Assembly (NCBI GenBank): GCA_016839365.1
Contig: JAEOUH010000031.1
Span: forward strand, 1 to 30,832
Length of the DNA: 30,832 bases
Origin: Candidatus Hermodarchaeota archaeon
Lineage (GTDB): Archaea; Asgardarchaeota; Hermodarchaeia; Hermodarchaeales; Hermodarchaeaceae
Direction: 5' to 3'
Translations under genes and position numbers: made by a program
Part shown: positions 4,699 through 23,164 of the stretch, piece after piece
Layout: each line of letters starts with the position of its first letter
Numbering within the stretch: the first letter of the stretch is position 1
The notes under the pieces: generated by a model
What the model saw: only the letters and a program-made list of their open reading frames with translations
Databases searched by the model: none
Told to the model about the DNA's origin: nothing

Positions 4699-5244
4699 TC
4701 ATGCGATACTTTCGAGGATAAGTGGAGCCAGAAAGAAAAAGGGCTTAACGACGTTCATCCCGGTTTTCGCACTCGTTTCCACATAGGTGATTTCATTTGC
4801 AGTTGCAAAATCTTGGATTTGTTCTGCCGTAACAGCTGAGTGAAGATCAGCCTTGTTACCCACAAACACCATCGGAATGTCACCACAGGCTTGTTTTACT
4901 TCATTCATCCAGAAGTTCAACCGCTCAAAACTTTCAGTGTTTGTCAAATCGAAAACGAGGACCGCACCCCGAGCACCTAGATAATATTTCTTCCGCACAG
5001 GGCCAAATCGTTCTTGCCCCGCTGTGTCCCATACAGTGAACCGTAGGGTCGTATTTCTAACATTGATGTCCTGGACAAAGAAATTTACTCCTAAGGTGAT
5101 GATATAGCTAGGGTTGAACACACCTTTGACAAAGCGAACAATCAGGCTGGTTTTCCCCACTGCCGCATCCCCCACTACCACGATTTTCGCTCGGTAGGAA
5201 TAATCGCGTTTCTCCGAATGGTATTCAGAAGGGTGAGAAGTCAT
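4699..5244 (-). CDS. Rab-like small GTPase (Ras superfamily)
   Basis: G1 GDAAVGKTS, G2 ITLGVNF, G3 WDTAGQERF, G4 GNKAD, G5 ETSAK; RabF-like YYLGA and LVFDLT; no C-terminal Cys motif. Confidence 0.96.
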   Translation of the reverse strand: MTSHPSEYHSEKRDYSYRAKIVVVGDAAVGKTSLIVRFVKGVFNPSYIITLGVNFFVQDINVRNTTLRFTVWDTAGQERFGPVRKKYYLGARGAVLVFDLTNTESFERLNFWMNEVKQACGDIPMVFVGNKADLHSAVTAEQIQDFATANEITYVETSAKTGMNVVKPFFFLAPLILESIA

Positions 5245-6059
5245 AGAAGTTCCATCACCAGCTTTTGTTGCAAACCATACTCCTCAATACGTTTTTGCTC
5301 CGCTTTTATCAAAGGCACATAATATTCGAAGAAGAGGGCTTCATAACTTTCTCGACGTCGTGTCCGTCGAGCAATAGCAACCAACTCCTTCAAGATGACA
5401 CTCAAGATATCATCCAGACCTTGTAAATTAACCCTATCAGGATCAACTTGGTCAAAGGAAATGCCACTATATTTGTCAAGGGTAACTGGCTGTAGCGCTC
5501 GATCTGCTTTGAGATGGGTGGAAAGGATGCGTTGGATATCAGTAAAATGCATTTCAAGGGAACGTTCAGAAATCACTTTCTGTAAGGTGATGTTATAAAA
5601 TTGGGTGAATATATCGAAGAGGTCCACGACCTTAGCAGTCCGAAGAGAGGCCTCGCCGGTTTCCCAGTGGGAGATAAGACTGTCCACTAATTCATCAAAC
5701 ACTTTTGTCCGTTGTGGATCACGTTGATAAACCGGGATATGTGAGGAGGCATCTGAGAAGTTTTCGAGGAACCGGATGTGCAACATATCTAAGTATTCCC
5801 CAAATCGTGTGGGATCATCAATTAAATCGGTGATAAACACAAGCAATATGCTGTTTTCATTATCGACTTTGAAGAAAAACCGAGAATCTTTCATAGTCAC
5901 CATATCAACGTGCTGCTCAGTCACCTTCATTGCCAACAGTTCCACACTAGCAAGTAATCCTGATAACAAAGTGGGGTTTTCGGTGACTTCGACCCAGGTC
6001 CGACTATAGAGGGGTTGTCCGGAATCCCATGCAATGACGTAGAAACTATGAATAGCCAT
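5241..6059 (-). CDS. Longin-domain protein with C-terminal helical extension
   Basis: N-terminal pattern IHSFYVI..SGQPLYSR..NPTLLSGLLASV..VDMVTM..ILLVFITD..RFLENF is typical of longin folds. Stop overlaps the GTPase start (ATGA). Confidence 0.8.
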   Translation of the reverse strand: MAIHSFYVIAWDSGQPLYSRTWVEVTENPTLLSGLLASVELLAMKVTEQHVDMVTMKDSRFFFKVDNENSILLVFITDLIDDPTRFGEYLDMLHIRFLENFSDASSHIPVYQRDPQRTKVFDELVDSLISHWETGEASLRTAKVVDLFDIFTQFYNITLQKVISERSLEMHFTDIQRILSTHLKADRALQPVTLDKYSGISFDQVDPDRVNLQGLDDILSVILKELVAIARRTRRRESYEALFFEYYVPLIKAEQKRIEEYGLQQKLVMELL

Positions 6060-14670: not shown

Positions 14671-15004
14671 ATCACCCGCTGGAGATAATGTGTCTATTCT
14701 GTGTCTTGTGTGATAATTTCCCTAAGAAGGCTGGTATTACCTCGTATTTATACCAGAAAGGCTTGAGGAATACTTGAGCGTTAGTTGGGACACTAAGTAC
14801 TTGGCTTAAGTAATAGAGAAAAGTGCTTCTGAGATTCAAAGTTTGTTTTTACGTCATTCAACCGGAAACACCCCGCTAAATGCTCCAAATGATGAGAAAG
14901 AAACGGAAAATCCTGCTCCATAACACAAGCTCTGGTATTACCAGCGGTTAAATCAGCTCAGCAAAACACTAGTCAAGTCACGTGATTCCTAGGTGGACAA
15001 AGTC

Positions 15005-15934
15005 ATGGAATATGAAGGTATGAGTGTGGAGTTCACTCCTATTCAAAAACTCGTGAATGAAGCGATTGATCGTTTCACCGAGCATGTTGCCATTGAACGC
15101 GGGGGAAGCTACCAAACTTCCCGTGTTTATCGTTATGATCTCGAGATGTTTTTCCAATTTATCGGTGTGCCACCTCAACAGGTGCAACCTCAACATGTGC
15201 GGATGTTTCTTGCCCATCTGAAAACCGATAAAGGATACGCTAATGCCTCTTTAAGGCGTAAGCTTGCCTGTCTGCGATCCTTTTTCCGGTTCCTGGTTCA
15301 GCAGGAGCTATCACCTGCTGATCCCACAACAGGGCTGCTGACACCTAAGCTAGGTCAAAGTCTTCCCCGGACTATTCCCTCGGAGGATGTTAATCGCCTG
15401 CTATGGGCTGCACGCAATGTTGAGAAGGAGCCGGTCCGTACCCATACCATCTTTCAAATCCTGTACAGCACTGGAGTTCGTGTTTCAGAACTCTGTGACA
15501 TTAATATTGAAGACATCGATTTCGCAGATGGAACTATCCGTGTCCGTGGAAAAGGTAACAAAGAACGGATCGTTTTCTTAGCGGTTCCTGCCATGAATGC
15601 AATTGTTGAATACCTTCAGTTCCGCCCTGCCACAGGGCCCCTCTTTTTAAATCGCCGAGGCCAGCGCCTCTCCCCATTAACTGTTCAACGAACGGTGCGT
15701 GCCGTTGCCCAACATGCAGGAGTCACTGCGAAAGTTACACCCCACGCATTACGTCATTCTTTTGCCACCCATATGCTTGAACGAGGAGCGGATGTACGGG
15801 TTCTCCAGGAACTCCTAGGACACTCGAATCTAGCGACCACCCAGATTTACACTCACGTCTCGTTAGCCCATGAACGAGCTGTATTCCAACGTACACATCC
15901 ATTAGCTGAATCCGATCCTGAGGGAGCCTACTAA
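15005..15934 (+). CDS. xerA: XerC/XerD-type site-specific tyrosine recombinase (archaeal XerA-like)
   Basis: Catalytic set GVRVSE (R), GKGNKER (K), HALRH, LLGH and TQIY; N-terminal core-binding domain; ATG 15005 follows AGGTGG. Confidence 0.9.
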   Translation: MEYEGMSVEFTPIQKLVNEAIDRFTEHVAIERGGSYQTSRVYRYDLEMFFQFIGVPPQQVQPQHVRMFLAHLKTDKGYANASLRRKLACLRSFFRFLVQQELSPADPTTGLLTPKLGQSLPRTIPSEDVNRLLWAARNVEKEPVRTHTIFQILYSTGVRVSELCDINIEDIDFADGTIRVRGKGNKERIVFLAVPAMNAIVEYLQFRPATGPLFLNRRGQRLSPLTVQRTVRAVAQHAGVTAKVTPHALRHSFATHMLERGADVRVLQELLGHSNLATTQIYTHVSLAHERAVFQRTHPLAESDPEGAY

Positions 15935-17500: not shown

Positions 17501-19348
17501 TTAGATCTTAGCTCCACAGGCAGGGCAGAAGCTGACCCCGGGAGGGATCGGTGATCCACAGTTGATGCAAGTATCCTCAGCAGAGGATTTATCTGGATAG
17601 TCGAATTCGTCTGGAGGCGGAGGCAGTGATGTGTCTTCCGTTGGTGGAGGCGGAGCTGTAGGACTTGTAGTCTTGGAGGGGCGGCGGCGGAAAATCCCCA
17701 GCAAGAGTTTTATGAGCCAAATGATTGCGTAGATTGTAACGAGGAGGATGATGAGAATGACTGGGATAGACCAGGGGATGTCGCGCATGATGGTGATAAT
17801 GAAGTCGAGGATGTTACCATAGACGACAGTTAGTAAGGCCTCGTTACTGGATTTGACCCAGACTCTGGCTGAGGCATCTTCGAAGGTGACGTTGGCACGT
17901 TGGGCAATATAACTGCCTTCACCAAAGACGGTGATTTGGTAGGTATGGACCTCTGTTACGCCAGGTGCTATAGAGGTCCAATTGGCGGTTAAGCTGCCAT
18001 CAATTCCCATAAGTCCAGTGGTAAAGCCTCCATAGATATACCAGCTTTCAGTGTCGTCAAGATCGACGTTGTAGACTGTTTCGGTGGGATCGATGTTTTC
18101 AAGAGTAATTGTAACAATTGCTGTGCCACCTTTCGTAATGAGAGGTGTAACTGTTTTAGTAATGCTTAGCCCAGGAGGAAAGTCACCTTCAAAAGTGACG
18201 ATGATATTGGGAACACTTGGAGCAGCTATCCAGAGAGCGGTTGAACGAGCAACTATTACTCCTTCGGGGCCGGTGGTATTAACCATGTCAGCCGGTGAAT
18301 AGGAGGTAATGTTGACTCCAGCAGGAAAATGCATGGTGAATTCAAAAGCATCCAACGTAGAACCCATTTCGATATTGCCTGTGTGACCGCAGAAGTCATT
18401 GACATCGAACGTCTGCTCGGTGGTGCCAAAGAATTTGTCCTTATGTTGGCTGCCCCAAGCGGCAAAAGTGATAGGTTCGAGAGTTTGCATTGCTGCCTTA
18501 GAAGGGGTGGACAAGAAACTACCTTCCATCACAGCTAGGTTGATGAACCCGGATAATCCAATGCCGCCAATAGCATCTTCAGCCAAGGTGGAGGTTACAA
18601 GTTCAGTACCACCATCTCTTACGGAACCGAGGTCCTCCATATAGGCTTGGAATTGGTTGCGTCCTTGGATTTCCACAGGATCAGGACCAGGGATTCCATA
18701 GAACCCATAAGCTTCTATTCCAACTGTAATATTGGGAAGCGGAAGAGCGGTTCCAAAAATCCGTTCGAATGGGGTTGCCAGGACAGTTTCGAATTCTAGG
18801 TGAATCGCATTCCCCCATCCTTGGATTTCAGCGGGGGAACCACCCATGAAAATCATGAGTATGGCGTTGGGTGGTAGAAGGTCCAGGATTTCATACAACA
18901 TGTCCATTTCAGATCCACCACCCCCATCAGTATCATTGGTGAGAATGGACAAGATTCCATCGAACACAGTTTCGTACTCACCCCACCGGAAGATGGAAAC
19001 GGCCATCATACATTCTTGATAGGGAGGAGTACTAGTGCTATAGGCCCCAACATTGCCAACGGCCATCACGGTAGAGGTCATTGATCCATCTGGATTCACG
19101 ACAAAAGCGGTTAAATCAGCTTCACCCTCCAGTGTGAAATTCTGTGCCCGCATGGCTGTGGGTATCGGTGAGGTTTGAAGCTCAAAGGTGTCGCTAGGCC
19201 CAAGGTGTGGAGGCTTGCTTGGGGTGGTGTAACCGAATGGAATAAAGAATCCGCTAAGAATGAACAGGAAACTAATCGTGATGACGAGAAGCGTGAGAGG
19301 GAGTTGATGATTAAGCTTGCGTGTGTGAGTGATACGTGTACGTTTCAT
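17501..19348 (-). CDS. Membrane-anchored surface protein with DUF11/BatD-like Ig domain, C-terminal TM, Pro-rich linker and zinc ribbon
   Basis: N-terminal anchor; LSITKTV..GGTAIVTITLEN Ig-like domain; TM; PPPP linker; CINCG..FCPACG. Confidence 0.8.
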   Translation of the reverse strand: MKRTRITHTRKLNHQLPLTLLVITISFLFILSGFFIPFGYTTPSKPPHLGPSDTFELQTSPIPTAMRAQNFTLEGEADLTAFVVNPDGSMTSTVMAVGNVGAYSTSTPPYQECMMAVSIFRWGEYETVFDGILSILTNDTDGGGGSEMDMLYEILDLLPPNAILMIFMGGSPAEIQGWGNAIHLEFETVLATPFERIFGTALPLPNITVGIEAYGFYGIPGPDPVEIQGRNQFQAYMEDLGSVRDGGTELVTSTLAEDAIGGIGLSGFINLAVMEGSFLSTPSKAAMQTLEPITFAAWGSQHKDKFFGTTEQTFDVNDFCGHTGNIEMGSTLDAFEFTMHFPAGVNITSYSPADMVNTTGPEGVIVARSTALWIAAPSVPNIIVTFEGDFPPGLSITKTVTPLITKGGTAIVTITLENIDPTETVYNVDLDDTESWYIYGGFTTGLMGIDGSLTANWTSIAPGVTEVHTYQITVFGEGSYIAQRANVTFEDASARVWVKSSNEALLTVVYGNILDFIITIMRDIPWSIPVILIILLVTIYAIIWLIKLLLGIFRRRPSKTTSPTAPPPPTEDTSLPPPPDEFDYPDKSSAEDTCINCGSPIPPGVSFCPACGAKI

Positions 19349-19370: not shown

Positions 19371-20006
19371 CTAATCTCGGACGGGGAAAAGTAAACGCCC
19401 GATAAAACCTCCAATCATCATTGTTACCACCAAGATGATGAAATTAATCACTGCTGGGAGGATAATTATATTCATCAGAATTGATTGCAAGAGTGCAAGT
19501 AGATTACCGGGATCAGGTATACCACCTCCGATTAAGTCCCCAATTCCTCCAGTAATGGCGTTGATGATTGGGCCAATTACTGGAGCATCTAGAACATCAA
19601 ACAGCGATGTGTTAGGGGGAATATTTGACAGCATCGCCAGAGGGTCGATGCCCGCACCTCCTGCAAGTAGAAGCGGAACAATCATGGCAATGAGGCCAAC
19701 GATGAGCATCAAGAAGGTAAGAGTGAAGATGACCATTGCTACTGGAATAGCGCCCCAAATACTGCGAACGAACAGCCCAGTGATAAATCCGATTGCGGCC
19801 CAAATGCCAATGATCGGAAGAAAAGTCATAGGCGAGGCGAAGATGAGGAATAGATACATGAGAAAAAAACGCAGCCACGGTCCGAAGAAGGGAGCAAGCC
19901 ATAAGATGATGCTATTGTACTCAGTGGGTATCATGAAGAATGCAATAGTGATGGTGAGGAGAAAGCCAAGAGAGAGCCCGATAAGTTTTCGTCCCATAAG
20001 TCTCAT
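19371..20006 (-). CDS. Multi-TM membrane protein, co-transcribed with the downstream surface protein
   Basis: Highly hydrophobic 211-aa ORF; 22-bp gap to the next gene on the same strand. Confidence 0.8.
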   Translation of the reverse strand: MRLMGRKLIGLSLGFLLTITIAFFMIPTEYNSIILWLAPFFGPWLRFFLMYLFLIFASPMTFLPIIGIWAAIGFITGLFVRSIWGAIPVAMVIFTLTFLMLIVGLIAMIVPLLLAGGAGIDPLAMLSNIPPNTSLFDVLDAPVIGPIINAITGGIGDLIGGGIPDPGNLLALLQSILMNIIILPAVINFIILVVTMMIGGFIGRLLFPVRD

Positions 20007-20494: not shown

Positions 20495-23164
20495 TTAGCG
20501 TGTGCTTTGAATAAATGACCGAGTTTTTTTCTGTTCCTGTTCCCATTTCTTTCGTTCAGATCGAAGCTTGAAGAGATCAATGTCTTTATAGACGAGTCCT
20601 TCACGTCCCTTGGGCATTATTCGTTCTTCTCGGTCTTTTTCGGGAGAATAAATGAGGGAATCGCCAAATTCAGCGACGTTGATGAAGAAACTGTAAGCAT
20701 AGATGGACCGTCGGGCGTCAAAGTGGATAGCTTTGAAATCTTCGGTGACAGGGGTAAATGCAGGATTGATAATAATATCAATGGGTGGCTCGAAGTTCTT
20801 CAACTCAACACGAAGGTCCATATCCAAAAAGTCACGGCAGATGATTACAGCTATACGCCCATATTTTGTATTGGCAACCATAACTTGAGCATCAGAAGGG
20901 CTTGTGGTGATACCTTCAGTGATACGTTGCTTCTGGTAATGGATGATGGCTGGGATGTGTTTTGCTTGTTCCCAGAGGATTCCTTCAGGGGAAATGATTG
21001 TACTGATGTTCTGTCGTGTATCGGTCTTATGATATGAACCAGGAATAATATACATATCATAGGTTTTTGCGAGGGAAATCACTTCATCGAATAAAATCTT
21101 CGAGTTGAGATCGATTGTCAGTTCGGGGAAGGCGAGAATCTTGATCTTGTCTTTTGCAGCAGCTTCAATCAGTCTATGGACCGTTTTTTGGACTTCTTTG
21201 ATTTTGATTTTGCGAATCCTAAATAGACCAGAGCCATCTTCTTGGTAGTATTCGTGGAGAATGTCTCCTGATTGTGATAATCCGATTTGGGCTATACCGA
21301 CTCTGAACTGTGTTTTCTCATACTCCTGGTGGTCTTTTAGTAAATCCAGATACACTAGATGATATTTCCGTCTAGGAGCTGAATCTATTCCAGTCCGTTG
21401 GTCTACGATGTTGGTAACCGTTTCTTTAATCATCCGCTCAATAAGTGCATCAAGCTTACTCAGTTCAATCATTTCTTGTTTAGAAGGTGCATCCTTCACT
21501 ATGAGGTCCCATTTTTTCATGTGGGAATCGAGGAGTTTTCTTTCGTTGGAAAGAACCTCTTCAAGTCTTTTTAATCTCATTTCCTCTGCAATCGCCTGAG
21601 CTTGGGTTAGTAGTTTGTTTGCACGGCCTATATTCATTTCAACTAGGGCAAGTTTGGATTGCAAGAGATAGGTTTCCGCGAGTAAGTACGGAGAAGATTG
21701 AAGCTTGGCGATTTCTAGCAGTTGCTTTGTTAACTGAGAGATATCAGCGATGAGCTCATCTTCGCCAGTTAGTTTCAATTCTGCTAATAGTAGGTCACAA
21801 AGATGAATCATCGCAGTTTCTTTCAATGAATGATCTACAACCTCTTCTGAAATGACTTCTTCGAGAATCTCACTTGCCTTTAGCTTTTGACGTGTTCGCT
21901 TACTGGTTTTGAGGATGAGCGCTTTTGCTACCCGATAACGCTGATCGAGAATACGATTATCTCTACGAGCATTAATCACGCCAAGTTGTTCCAGAGAGTT
22001 TTCTATGAGGACAGAGTCTTGTGTTTCGATGCCCACCCTAACCAATTCAAATAAAACAACGCCTGCTAAAAAGTCATTAGCGAATTCGTTAGACAAAGCT
22101 AAACTCTTTTCGTAGCAGTCTTGCGCCTTCTGATACTCTGCTTTCTTCTGATAGACACTTCCAATGTTAGATAGCAATAGGGCAATTTGGTCACTTAACT
22201 CCAATTCTTCGTAGATTTTTAGACTTCTCTGATAGTAGTTGAGAGCTTCCTCGAAATCTCCTTTAAGTTCATAGATGTTACCGATGTTATTAACAGCTAA
22301 TGCGATATCGGTCTGGATATTGAGCTCTTCACCCAGCGCTAAGCTCCGTTGATAGTATTCTTGCGCCTGGTTGAGATCACCCTTAAATTGAAATACCACC
22401 CCTAGGTTCAGAAGGGACAAGGCGATATCATGTTTATTCCCAAGTTCTTCTTTGATTTTGAGACTCCGTTGTTGGTAGTCTAAGGCTTTATCAAGTTCAC
22501 CAATTCTAACATAACAATTCCCCAAATTAGTCAAGGTCACACCGATGTTTCGTCGATCTACCAATTCCTCATTGACCTCTAAAGCCCGATGATAAAATGT
22601 GAGTGCCTGATCGATGTCTCCTTTTGACCAGTAGACTAGCCCTAGATTATTCAAGCTGCGGGCAACACCTCGCTTATCATTCAATGTCTGTTTGATTGCG
22701 AGGCTTTTTTGGTGGTGGTCTAATGCTGTATCGTATTTTCCTTTATACCAGTATGCAATCCCCGTTTGGTTGAGTAATGCGGCTTTACGTTGATTAATTT
22801 CAGTCTCTTGTTTCGAATCAATTCCGTTGAGGAGGTCTAGCCCCTTTTGAGCAGCTTCCAAGCCTTTTGTGATTTCACCTGAGCGCCAGTAAAGTTCAGC
22901 CTGTACAACCATCGCATCGATCATCAACAAGGGATCTATCTGAGGAGGAGAGGATTGTAAAAGATCAAATACCAGCCTTCGAGCTATCTCAATTTCATCG
23001 AGATTGAATAAGAGTTGGCTTTCTAGAAGTTTATACGAGAATTGATCCTCAGGTGTCAATTCTTCGAAGGATAGACTCCTTAACTTTGTAAGGGCTTGTT
23101 CATATTCGCCCTCATCTTTTAACTGAGTTATTATTGCGAATGTAGTCCGAATGACTTTAGCCAA
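20495..23164 (-). CDS. TPR-repeat protein fused to a C-terminal carbon-nitrogen hydrolase (nitrilase-fold) domain
   Basis: Six or more long TPR units (A.SLNNLG.VY..KG....AL.YY.RSL). C-terminal domain from about 21310 has VGIAQ, FPE (E), QAKH (K) and ICRDF (C). Confidence 0.88.
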   Translation of the reverse strand: MAKVIRTTFAIITQLKDEGEYEQALTKLRSLSFEELTPEDQFSYKLLESQLLFNLDEIEIARRLVFDLLQSSPPQIDPLLMIDAMVVQAELYWRSGEITKGLEAAQKGLDLLNGIDSKQETEINQRKAALLNQTGIAYWYKGKYDTALDHHQKSLAIKQTLNDKRGVARSLNNLGLVYWSKGDIDQALTFYHRALEVNEELVDRRNIGVTLTNLGNCYVRIGELDKALDYQQRSLKIKEELGNKHDIALSLLNLGVVFQFKGDLNQAQEYYQRSLALGEELNIQTDIALAVNNIGNIYELKGDFEEALNYYQRSLKIYEELELSDQIALLLSNIGSVYQKKAEYQKAQDCYEKSLALSNEFANDFLAGVVLFELVRVGIETQDSVLIENSLEQLGVINARRDNRILDQRYRVAKALILKTSKRTRQKLKASEILEEVISEEVVDHSLKETAMIHLCDLLLAELKLTGEDELIADISQLTKQLLEIAKLQSSPYLLAETYLLQSKLALVEMNIGRANKLLTQAQAIAEEMRLKRLEEVLSNERKLLDSHMKKWDLIVKDAPSKQEMIELSKLDALIERMIKETVTNIVDQRTGIDSAPRRKYHLVYLDLLKDHQEYEKTQFRVGIAQIGLSQSGDILHEYYQEDGSGLFRIRKIKIKEVQKTVHRLIEAAAKDKIKILAFPELTIDLNSKILFDEVISLAKTYDMYIIPGSYHKTDTRQNISTIISPEGILWEQAKHIPAIIHYQKQRITEGITTSPSDAQVMVANTKYGRIAVIICRDFLDMDLRVELKNFEPPIDIIINPAFTPVTEDFKAIHFDARRSIYAYSFFINVAEFGDSLIYSPEKDREERIMPKGREGLVYKDIDLFKLRSERKKWEQEQKKTRSFIQSTR

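Follow-up and report, generated by a model that had tools for sequence, protein, structure and literature searches.

A TPR-solenoid/nitrilase fusion protein of Hermodarchaeota as a possible single-gene sensor-effector amidase

The fusion gene and its product

The window analysed here is the whole 30,832-nucleotide stretch of DNA from Candidatus Hermodarchaeota archaeon, an Asgard archaeon of the family Hermodarchaeaceae [GenBank: GCA_016839365.1, contig JAEOUH010000031.1, positions 1 to 30,832]. It contains a gene for a protein in which a solenoid of tetratricopeptide repeats (TPR) is followed by a C-terminal nitrilase-fold (CN hydrolase) module (Table 1). An identical protein of 889 amino acids (aa) is already present in the database as a called gene (P0002), and one search returned 875 homologues at E ≤ 1e-3, far beyond what chance would give. 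The host genome (2.2 Mb, 84% complete) holds a single copy of the gene, as well as two canonical CN hydrolases (174–205 Pfam bits) and one more gene with a weak match.

The Pfam families matched by the N-terminal part are TPR_12 (4.8e-46), TPR_1, TPR_7, TPR_10, MalT-like TPR and others, with a main span of about aa 86–360. The C-terminal match to CN_hydrolase (PF00795; aa 657–864, E 5e-5) is marginal, its 23.2 bits being exactly the gathering threshold; the same gene scores 25.7 bits in a scan of the whole genome, and its relatives score 31–42 bits. In a full-length AlphaFold2 model, made from an alignment with 30 relatives and having a predicted local distance difference test score (pLDDT) of 81.5, helix hairpins follow one another without a break over aa 3–557, the connector at aa 559–597 is modelled with low confidence, and an alpha/beta nitrilase fold comes next at aa 601–881. 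A separate model of aa 590–889 (pLDDT 83.6) has the alpha-beta-beta-alpha sandwich of the nitrilase superfamily.

The initial annotation, made from the letters of the window, had described a TPR array and a helical linker joined to a nitrilase fold with a complete Glu-Lys-Cys (E-K-C) triad. Pfam and AlphaFold2 agree with this architecture, and the 'helical linker' can now be read as the solenoid's own distal part, because the hairpins run unbroken in the model. E681, K735 and C776 are invariant across 30 full-length relatives and in the module alignment, and their codons were verified. The tail ICRDFLD...FGDS.IYSP is found in the translation as it had been read.

Table 1. Features of the fusion gene and of genes near it, in window coordinates
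Feature	Position	Strand	Remarks
Whole gene, TPR-solenoid/nitrilase fusion	20495..23164	-	889 aa; TTG start; stop codon 20495-20497
Solenoid N-terminal cap, aa 1-130	22775..23164	-	Fastest-evolving; median identity 31% vs 29 relatives
Canonical TPR core, aa 131-400	21965..22774	-	TPR_12/TPR_1/TPR_10 repeats; median identity 47%
Distal solenoid, aa 401-557	21494..21964	-	MalT-like TPR; median identity 60%; module also in nitrilase-less Asgard paralogues
Connector, aa 558-600	21365..21493	-	Probably flexible; pLDDT <50 over aa 559-597
Nitrilase-fold (CN hydrolase) module, aa 601-889	20498..21364	-	DRT/CARF-associated clade (supported); 58-89% identity across family
Catalytic Glu681 codon, PELT motif	21122..21124	-	Invariant
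Catalytic Lys735 codon, KHIPA motif	20960..20962	-	Invariant; aligned to DRT11 K833
Catalytic Cys776 codon, CRDF motif	20837..20839	-	Invariant; aligned to DRT11 C876
Two invariant helices, aa 780-790 (LDMDLRVELKN) and aa 808-821 (..DFKAxHFDARRSI)	20702..20827	-	Predicted homodimer interface
Invariant C-terminal tail FIQSTR	20498..20515	-	Possible lid, or tail acting in trans, on the analogy of DRT1
615-aa protein with C-terminal zinc ribbon	17501-19348	-	Downstream of the TPR-nitrilase gene
211-aa protein	19371-20006	-	No family match; adjacency kept within genus, identities 96% and 81%
Tyrosine recombinase	14993-15934	+	Phage_integrase 2.3e-49; same position and 92% identity in related species

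Affiliation of the nitrilase module

To which branch of the nitrilases does the module belong? The initial annotation had placed it nearer to the nitrilases associated with reverse transcriptases (RT) than to the metabolic ones, and four lines of comparison agree: profile scores, nearest relatives, a tree and a shared motif. The CARF, RT-associated and UG5 models of PADLOC score 42–50 bits on the nitrilase part, against 23 for Pfam CN_hydrolase. The best of these models is CARF_m7-nitrilase (PDLC01989; 3.1e-14), which is matched by aa 652–845 at profile positions 210–392 of 457, and RTasNitrilase (1.3e-12) and RT_UG5-nitrilase (1.1e-11) come next. The RT_UG5-nitrilase match runs over aa 421–875 and profile positions 468–880 of 907; here the likeness of the helical repeats to UG5 may be compositional, because an hhalign comparison with DRT11 covers the nitrilase alone. 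None of the NCBIfam metabolic families (AguB-type equivalogs, Nit, beta-ureidopropionase) is reached, the best score being 18.9 bits where the cut-off is 410. Pfam scores in Asgard genomes are bimodal, with housekeeping CN hydrolases at 72–239 bits in 26 of 26 genomes and the family at 22–40 bits.

A profile of 20 family modules searched against a library of 1.84 billion representatives retrieved 807 proteins at E ≤ 1e-3, with a sharp gap between the family (>215 bits) and its next relatives (≤91 bits). The 74 nearest non-family representatives include 56 with matches to RTasNitrilase, 51 to RT_UG5-nitrilase, 49 to CARF_nitrilase and 26 to Drt1a, and a match to Pfam CN_hydrolase at 1e-5 is found in only 24 of them. 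Since metabolic CN hydrolases of the ordinary kind are much the more abundant in nature, the scarcity of such enzymes among the nearest relatives is informative. Fusion partners seen among these relatives are LRR, HEAT, nSTAND3, CARF/Csx1 and PUA.

A maximum-likelihood tree made by a quick method from 96 domains, with relatives picked by similarity to the query and metabolic references taken from Asgard genomes only, recovers the family as monophyletic (support 100). A branch with a value of 98 in the Shimodaira-Hasegawa-like approximate likelihood-ratio test (SH-aLRT) unites the family, its near relatives and the S. meliloti DRT11 (UG5-large), which is antiphage by experiment, and 17 Asgard housekeeping CN hydrolases stand apart. 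Such a phylogeny had been suggested as a check on the annotation, and in it the family falls with an antiphage protein and not among the housekeeping enzymes of its own phylum. Aligned to DRT11 by hhalign, K735 and C776 fall on K833 and C876, respectively, and the two proteins have in common the motif yGDSrIrgP / FGDSLIYSP; the identity of ~23% over 193 columns is remote.

Comparisons of single sequences and of folds say less about the branch. With single sequences in hhalign, housekeeping enzymes cover the N-terminal half (E 1.2e-6 and 2.2e-5 for the genome's own CN hydrolases) and DRT11 covers the C-terminal two thirds, with similar E-values that are not decisive. A profile match to DRT1 (PDB 9yfd; E 0.0075) takes in the C-terminal half up to eight residues before the end. 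In PDB searches with the single sequence and the profile, 7elf (4.8e-5), 2vhh (8.9e-4), Nit2 (3e-3) and DRT1 (7.5e-3) are roughly equal and uninformative as to branch. Foldseek against the PDB gave 213 matches at E ≤ 0.001, and all those listed are nitrilase-superfamily enzymes. The top match is mouse Nit2 (TM-score 0.64), the best matches, among them beta-ureidopropionase and archaeal amidases, lie at 0.55–0.64, and identity is ~16%. The PDB set used, up to 2026-04-08, is older than the DRT1 paper and listed no DRT1 chain, so this ranking of folds says nothing on DRT1. Overall, the sequence comparisons support placing the nitrilase in the radiation associated with UG and CARF proteins, nearer to the RT-associated than to the metabolic nitrilases.

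Exchange of modules and scaffolds

The last ~297 residues, which are well conserved throughout the family (Table 1), sit on at least three unrelated N-termini. These are the ~590-residue TPR solenoid of proteins of ~890 aa, including the window protein; a ~975-residue SNAP/TPR-like helical scaffold in proteins of ~1277 aa; and a small-GTPase-like region in a protein of 873 aa. Longer proteins with the nitrilase module, of 1396–1800 aa, also exist. Within the TPR form the median identity to the window protein rises in a sensor-like gradient from the N-terminal cap through the core and the distal solenoid (Table 1), and reaches 63% in the nitrilase.

Two further arrangements of the nitrilase were seen. 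Seven proteins of 600–645 aa (P0184, P0187, P0188, P0189 and P0193-P0195) have two tandem nitrilase domains, both of which match the RT-associated and CARF nitrilase models, a duplication that we do not know from the literature. In P0125 (1090 aa) the module lies near the N-terminus, at aa 128–419, and is followed by ~670 residues; this could reflect either a fusion made in gene calling or a reversal of the usual order of domains.

The scaffolds are likewise found with other ends. In one genome, four tandem solenoid-nitrilase paralogues of ~1278 aa, 48–57% identical, are followed by a fifth (L022:4705-7917, + strand; 1070 aa) that keeps the scaffold, at 41–47% identity over ~970 aa, and has the nitrilase replaced by a Cys-rich end. 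This end (C-x2-H ... CPNC..CYC..C ... CWTC) is probably zinc-binding; no Pfam zinc-finger family was detected in it. The distal solenoid (aa 380–592) matches 112 of 201 Asgard genomes, several of which have 15 or more matches, and most of these are open reading frames (ORFs) of 580–800 aa without a nitrilase. TPR-scaffold proteins of ~735 aa also form tandem arrays of up to seven in a row (L071, G030:C3:18000-37000; also L067, L076, L077, L078).

A survey of what else the TPR scaffold carries, as the initial annotation had suggested, found that other C-termini are widespread. A common C-terminal domain of ~140 aa is present in 26 of 31 scaffold ORFs examined, and other ORFs with this scaffold end in a winged-helix-like or a longer beta-rich segment, as judged by eye from the alignment. 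The ~140-aa domain has no Pfam or PDB match. Among its neighbours in the Atlas, which serve as leads only, is a cluster of Roadblock/LAMTOR2 (scores 0.88 and 0.86), and the domain weakly matches the N-terminus of a 272-aa protein of the window (5241-6059; hhalign E 2.4e-4, probability 44%). The domain is possibly Roadblock/longin-like, which we treat as a lead.

Distribution and transfer

Matches to the nitrilase module are found in 55 of the 201 sampled Asgard genomes and in 10 of 59 genera, concentrated in four families. There are up to eight matches per genome, with tandem arrays and with short fragments, one of which contains stop codons. When one genome of each prokaryotic species was scanned, 269 relatives emerged, and the best 80 of them all carry an Asgard label except for two from WOR-3 bacteria, two from Bathyarchaeia and one from Pacearchaeota. 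The two WOR-3 chromosomes (L020, CP070686.1:852579-875266; L158, CP070705.1) carry a full-length TPR-nitrilase whose nitrilase module is ~58–61% identical. The CP070686.1 record can be regarded as genuinely bacterial, since bL19 is present and eL31 absent, there are no runs of N near the gene, and the G+C content of the gene equals that of its flanks. From this, the sequences indicate that the whole TPR form has moved between domains at ~58% identity, from an Asgard archaeon to a bacterium or the reverse. In its own genus the gene is vertically inherited as a fixed single copy, and elsewhere the family behaves as an expanding and shuffling accessory family.

Comparison with known systems

DRT1 (UG1) and UG5-large/DRT11 are class 3 UG/Abi defence RTs in which an RT and alpha-helical repeats precede a C-terminal nitrilase (PDB 9yfd; PMC13275509, PMC13436386, PMC9226505). 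The residue names K833 and C876 used above for DRT11 are those of PMC13436386. In DRT1 the nitrilase functions only when oligomeric, and a conserved C-terminal lid keeps it switched off (PMC13275509). The window protein has in common with these systems the nitrilase clade, the aligned catalytic Lys and Cys, a motif of the YGDS.I..P type, a basic C-terminal helix, a helical-repeat region before the nitrilase, and a single large polypeptide; an oligomeric nitrilase is predicted for it and required in DRT1. Unlike them, it has a TPR solenoid in place of the RT, so that no protein-primed DNA adduct gates the enzyme, and it comes from an archaeal host in which no defence-island context was found. 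No RT family was detected by Pfam or PADLOC in the window protein or in the six flanking genes scanned.

The CARF_m7-nitrilase fusions, which are predicted ancillary effectors of type III CRISPR systems, follow the same logic of a sensor domain with a nitrilase output. The window protein differs in having neither a CARF domain nor a CRISPR context, and its match to the PADLOC model is confined to the nitrilase half. The presumed input also differs, being a TPR-bound protein or peptide rather than a cyclic oligoadenylate. Uncharacterised HEAT- and LRR-nitrilase fusions (e.g. P0183, P0233, P0242) have the same design of a repeat solenoid with a C-terminal nitrilase. They are among the groups nearest to the family in the tree (support 80–91, branching not settled), but they have another type of repeat and a far more divergent nitrilase (≤91 vs >215 bits to the family profile).

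At least two of these HEAT- and LRR-nitrilase fusions sit in archaeal-type contexts, one with an NB-ARC STAND neighbour and one with an MmeI-type gene nearby. In the first (L059:816-6219) the LRR-nitrilase gene is directly downstream of an AlbA_2/NB-ARC/TPR STAND gene, with a PNP_UDP_1 + UQ_con fusion nearby, and the locus looks defence-like. The second is a HEAT-nitrilase gene near a restriction-modification gene of the MmeI type.

The initial annotation had also likened the protein to the TPR sensors of Avs and TPR-CHAT systems. A TPR array with a variable end and an effector enzyme in one polypeptide is indeed common to them. STAND proteins are defined by an ATP-driven oligomerization switch, and the analogy with Avs is loose because the window protein lacks an NTPase. 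Membership of the STAND/Avs group was rejected on this ground, the model consisting of helical repeats up to aa 557. Housekeeping nitrilases (Nit2/omega-amidase, beta-ureidopropionase, N-carbamoylputrescine amidase, archaeal amidases) share the fold and the E-K-C chemistry. The family differs from them in scoring below every curated metabolic cut-off, in branching separately from the Asgard housekeeping enzymes, in its fusion to sensor-like scaffolds and in its patchy distribution. The gene thus belongs to none of the DRT, CARF and STAND families, since it lacks the sensor or switch domain that defines each of them, but it uses their effector clade in a sensor-plus-effector logic. The initial annotation had suggested that the protein may be undescribed, and our literature search likewise found no paper on a TPR-nitrilase family.

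Homodimer model and proposed mechanism

A homodimer model of the nitrilase module has an ipSAE of 0.67, against 0.00 for the best of three controls. In calibration, 20 of 30 proteins whose solved structures are pairs of one chain attained the mark for this score, compared with 1 of 23 whose structures are single chains. Agreement among the three runs extends to 49% of contacts or more, the partner pLDDT is 86 or higher, and the modelled interface (aa 780–790 and 808–821) consists of the most invariant blocks of the family. The modelling supports homodimerization of the module; nitrilase dimers have already been solved, so the model's pass may reflect likeness to known structures and not a property of this copy.

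We tentatively propose, giving it slightly under an even chance, that the protein is a single-polypeptide, ligand-gated sensor-effector amidase of an immune-like kind. The TPR solenoid would bind a protein or peptide cue. Binding would alter the assembly state of nitrilase dimers made through the helices of aa 780–821, or would lift their autoinhibition, and the invariant C-terminal tail might act as the lid does in DRT1. The active enzyme would then hydrolyse an essential metabolite that bears an amide, or else a side chain of a protein, and the outcome would be growth arrest or a stress output of the immune-like (conflict) kind. In support of such a mechanism there are an intact and constrained amidase of a defence-associated clade, a fast-evolving solenoid, a probably flexible tether and the exchange of both halves of the protein.

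Immune, signalling or metabolic role?

Several observations weigh against an immune-like role. The gene is present as a single copy in 12 of 14 genomes of its own genus, and in the two members without a match the contigs end at the syntenic UPF0182 gene. The same neighbourhood is found in three species of the genus. The initial annotation had held that a gene core to its relatives and syntenic among them would speak against defence; this is the situation within the genus, and it is not the situation Asgard-wide, where 10 of 59 genera have the module. Classical defence systems show no excess around the family: 131 ORFs within ~4 kb of 18 family genes were compared with 126 ORFs of 18 control regions in the same genomes (PADLOC, E ≤ 1e-8), in a small sample of loci whose kinship makes them non-independent and with models that are mainly bacterial. 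The hits among family neighbours were E1-E2 (5 ORFs), mad3 (3) and mad8 (2), and those in the control regions were type IIG restriction-modification, methyltransferases, mad3, pVip and ZorA. The enrichment in defence islands that had been proposed as a check was accordingly not seen for the TPR form in this test. With no recurrent neighbour and no conserved partner gene at its 13 loci, the TPR form behaves like a unit of one gene. Searches of the viral contigs of IMG/VR and, by tblastn, of the plasmids of PLSDB yielded no relatives, and Pfam and PADLOC detected in the protein no P-loop NTPase (NACHT, NB-ARC, nSTAND) or other known switch domain.

Is the protein instead a signalling or regulatory enzyme of the cell? 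In this explanation, which we consider possible but on balance unlikely and which is the main rival, the TPR scaffold is an Asgard signalling platform that usually ends in a Roadblock/longin-like domain for interaction with GTPases, and the nitrilase is a protein- or metabolite-modifying output (e.g. a protein deamidase, amidase or acyl-transferase) in small-GTPase or ubiquitin-like pathways. The number of scaffold genes without a nitrilase and the frequency of the ~140-aa end fit this well, as do the Roadblock/LAMTOR2 leads and the weak match to the 272-aa protein, but the Roadblock assignment is without Pfam or PDB confirmation. The same nitrilase module also sits on a small-GTPase-like N-terminus, and all five E1-like hits of the neighbourhood test fall in five related loci that bear this form (L085, L086, L087, L090, L091; family f9). 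Their GTPase-nitrilase ORFs of 791–871 aa are 63–70% identical to P0118 and adjoin a RING-type gene (~350 aa), a ~167-aa ORF, an E1/ThiF-like gene (~295 aa) and a ~190-aa ORF; two of the five loci also carry a free-standing GTPase-like region. By its gene content the locus looks like a ubiquitin-like conjugation island. The usual end of the scaffold, as far as the lead goes, and this E1/RING island both point to cell signalling, and so do the synteny and near-universal presence of the gene in its genus and the lack of a defence-island signal. E1/E2/RING modules serve in bacterial defence as well, however, which makes that context ambiguous. The only characterised members of the nitrilase clade are antiphage effectors, and the patchy pattern, tandem amplification, fragments and inter-domain transfer suit accessory conflict genes better than a core signalling enzyme.

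A metabolic explanation, in which the protein hydrolyses C-N bonds of small molecules in the ordinary way and its TPR part only localizes the enzyme or brings it into a complex, seems to us improbable. It would account for the closest PDB folds being Nit2, beta-ureidopropionase and archaeal amidases, for the hhalign matches between the N-terminal half and the CN hydrolases of the same genome, and for the fixed and syntenic gene in the genus. However, no NCBIfam family claims the protein, the genome already has canonical CN hydrolases, the tree sets the family apart from the housekeeping enzymes, and the restriction to a minority of the sampled Asgard genera, the multi-copy arrays and the swapped N-termini would be unexpected for a metabolic enzyme. 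That the protein is structural, with the nitrilase fold serving as an oligomerization module without catalysis, is very improbable. The most invariant blocks are indeed the predicted dimer-interface helices, but E681, K735, C776 and the active-site motifs are invariant in all sampled forms, which would not be expected of a dead enzyme.

Neighbouring genes

The gene order kept in three species of the genus is ParA, UPF0182, DUF362, TPR-nitrilase, a ~210-aa ORF, the 615-aa zinc-ribbon protein, a HEAT protein and an Xer-type integrase. Within this conserved order the TPR-nitrilase is 62% identical (TPR 51.5%, nitrilase 73%) where UPF0182 and ParA are 85–86% identical. In the other Asgard families, neither the 615-aa nor the 211-aa gene is a recurrent neighbour of the TPR forms. 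The tyrosine recombinase is probably a housekeeping Xer-type enzyme and not the edge of a mobile element. We considered whether the fusion gene might be cargo of such an element and rejected this, because the Xer-type integrase keeps its synteny across species.

Conclusions

The widest reading of these data is speculative, and taken as a whole we think it rather unlikely. Asgard archaea would possess a large and so far unpublished class of NTPase-less solenoid receptors (TPR, SNAP-like and GTPase-linked) whose outputs can be exchanged for one another: a nitrilase of the DRT type, a Roadblock/longin-like domain, or ends that are Cys-rich/RING-like. The TPR-nitrilase would be a suicide amidase triggered by viruses or stress, and the scaffolds would link immunity to the GTPase and ubiquitin machinery that was later inherited by eukaryotes.

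The same effector clade driven by a simple TPR receptor, without an RT, would offer a simpler system than DRT1 in which to find both the substrate and the rule of activation of antiviral nitrilase effectors. It would also extend this class of effectors to archaea, and specifically to the lineage closest to eukaryotes, where the same scaffolds may carry Roadblock/longin-like and RING-like ends and adjoin GTPase and ubiquitin-like genes. If the immune reading is true, the TPR-nitrilases would be a new type of archaeal single-gene defence; if the signalling reading is true, they would give the GTPase or ubiquitin networks of Asgard archaea a new enzymatic output.

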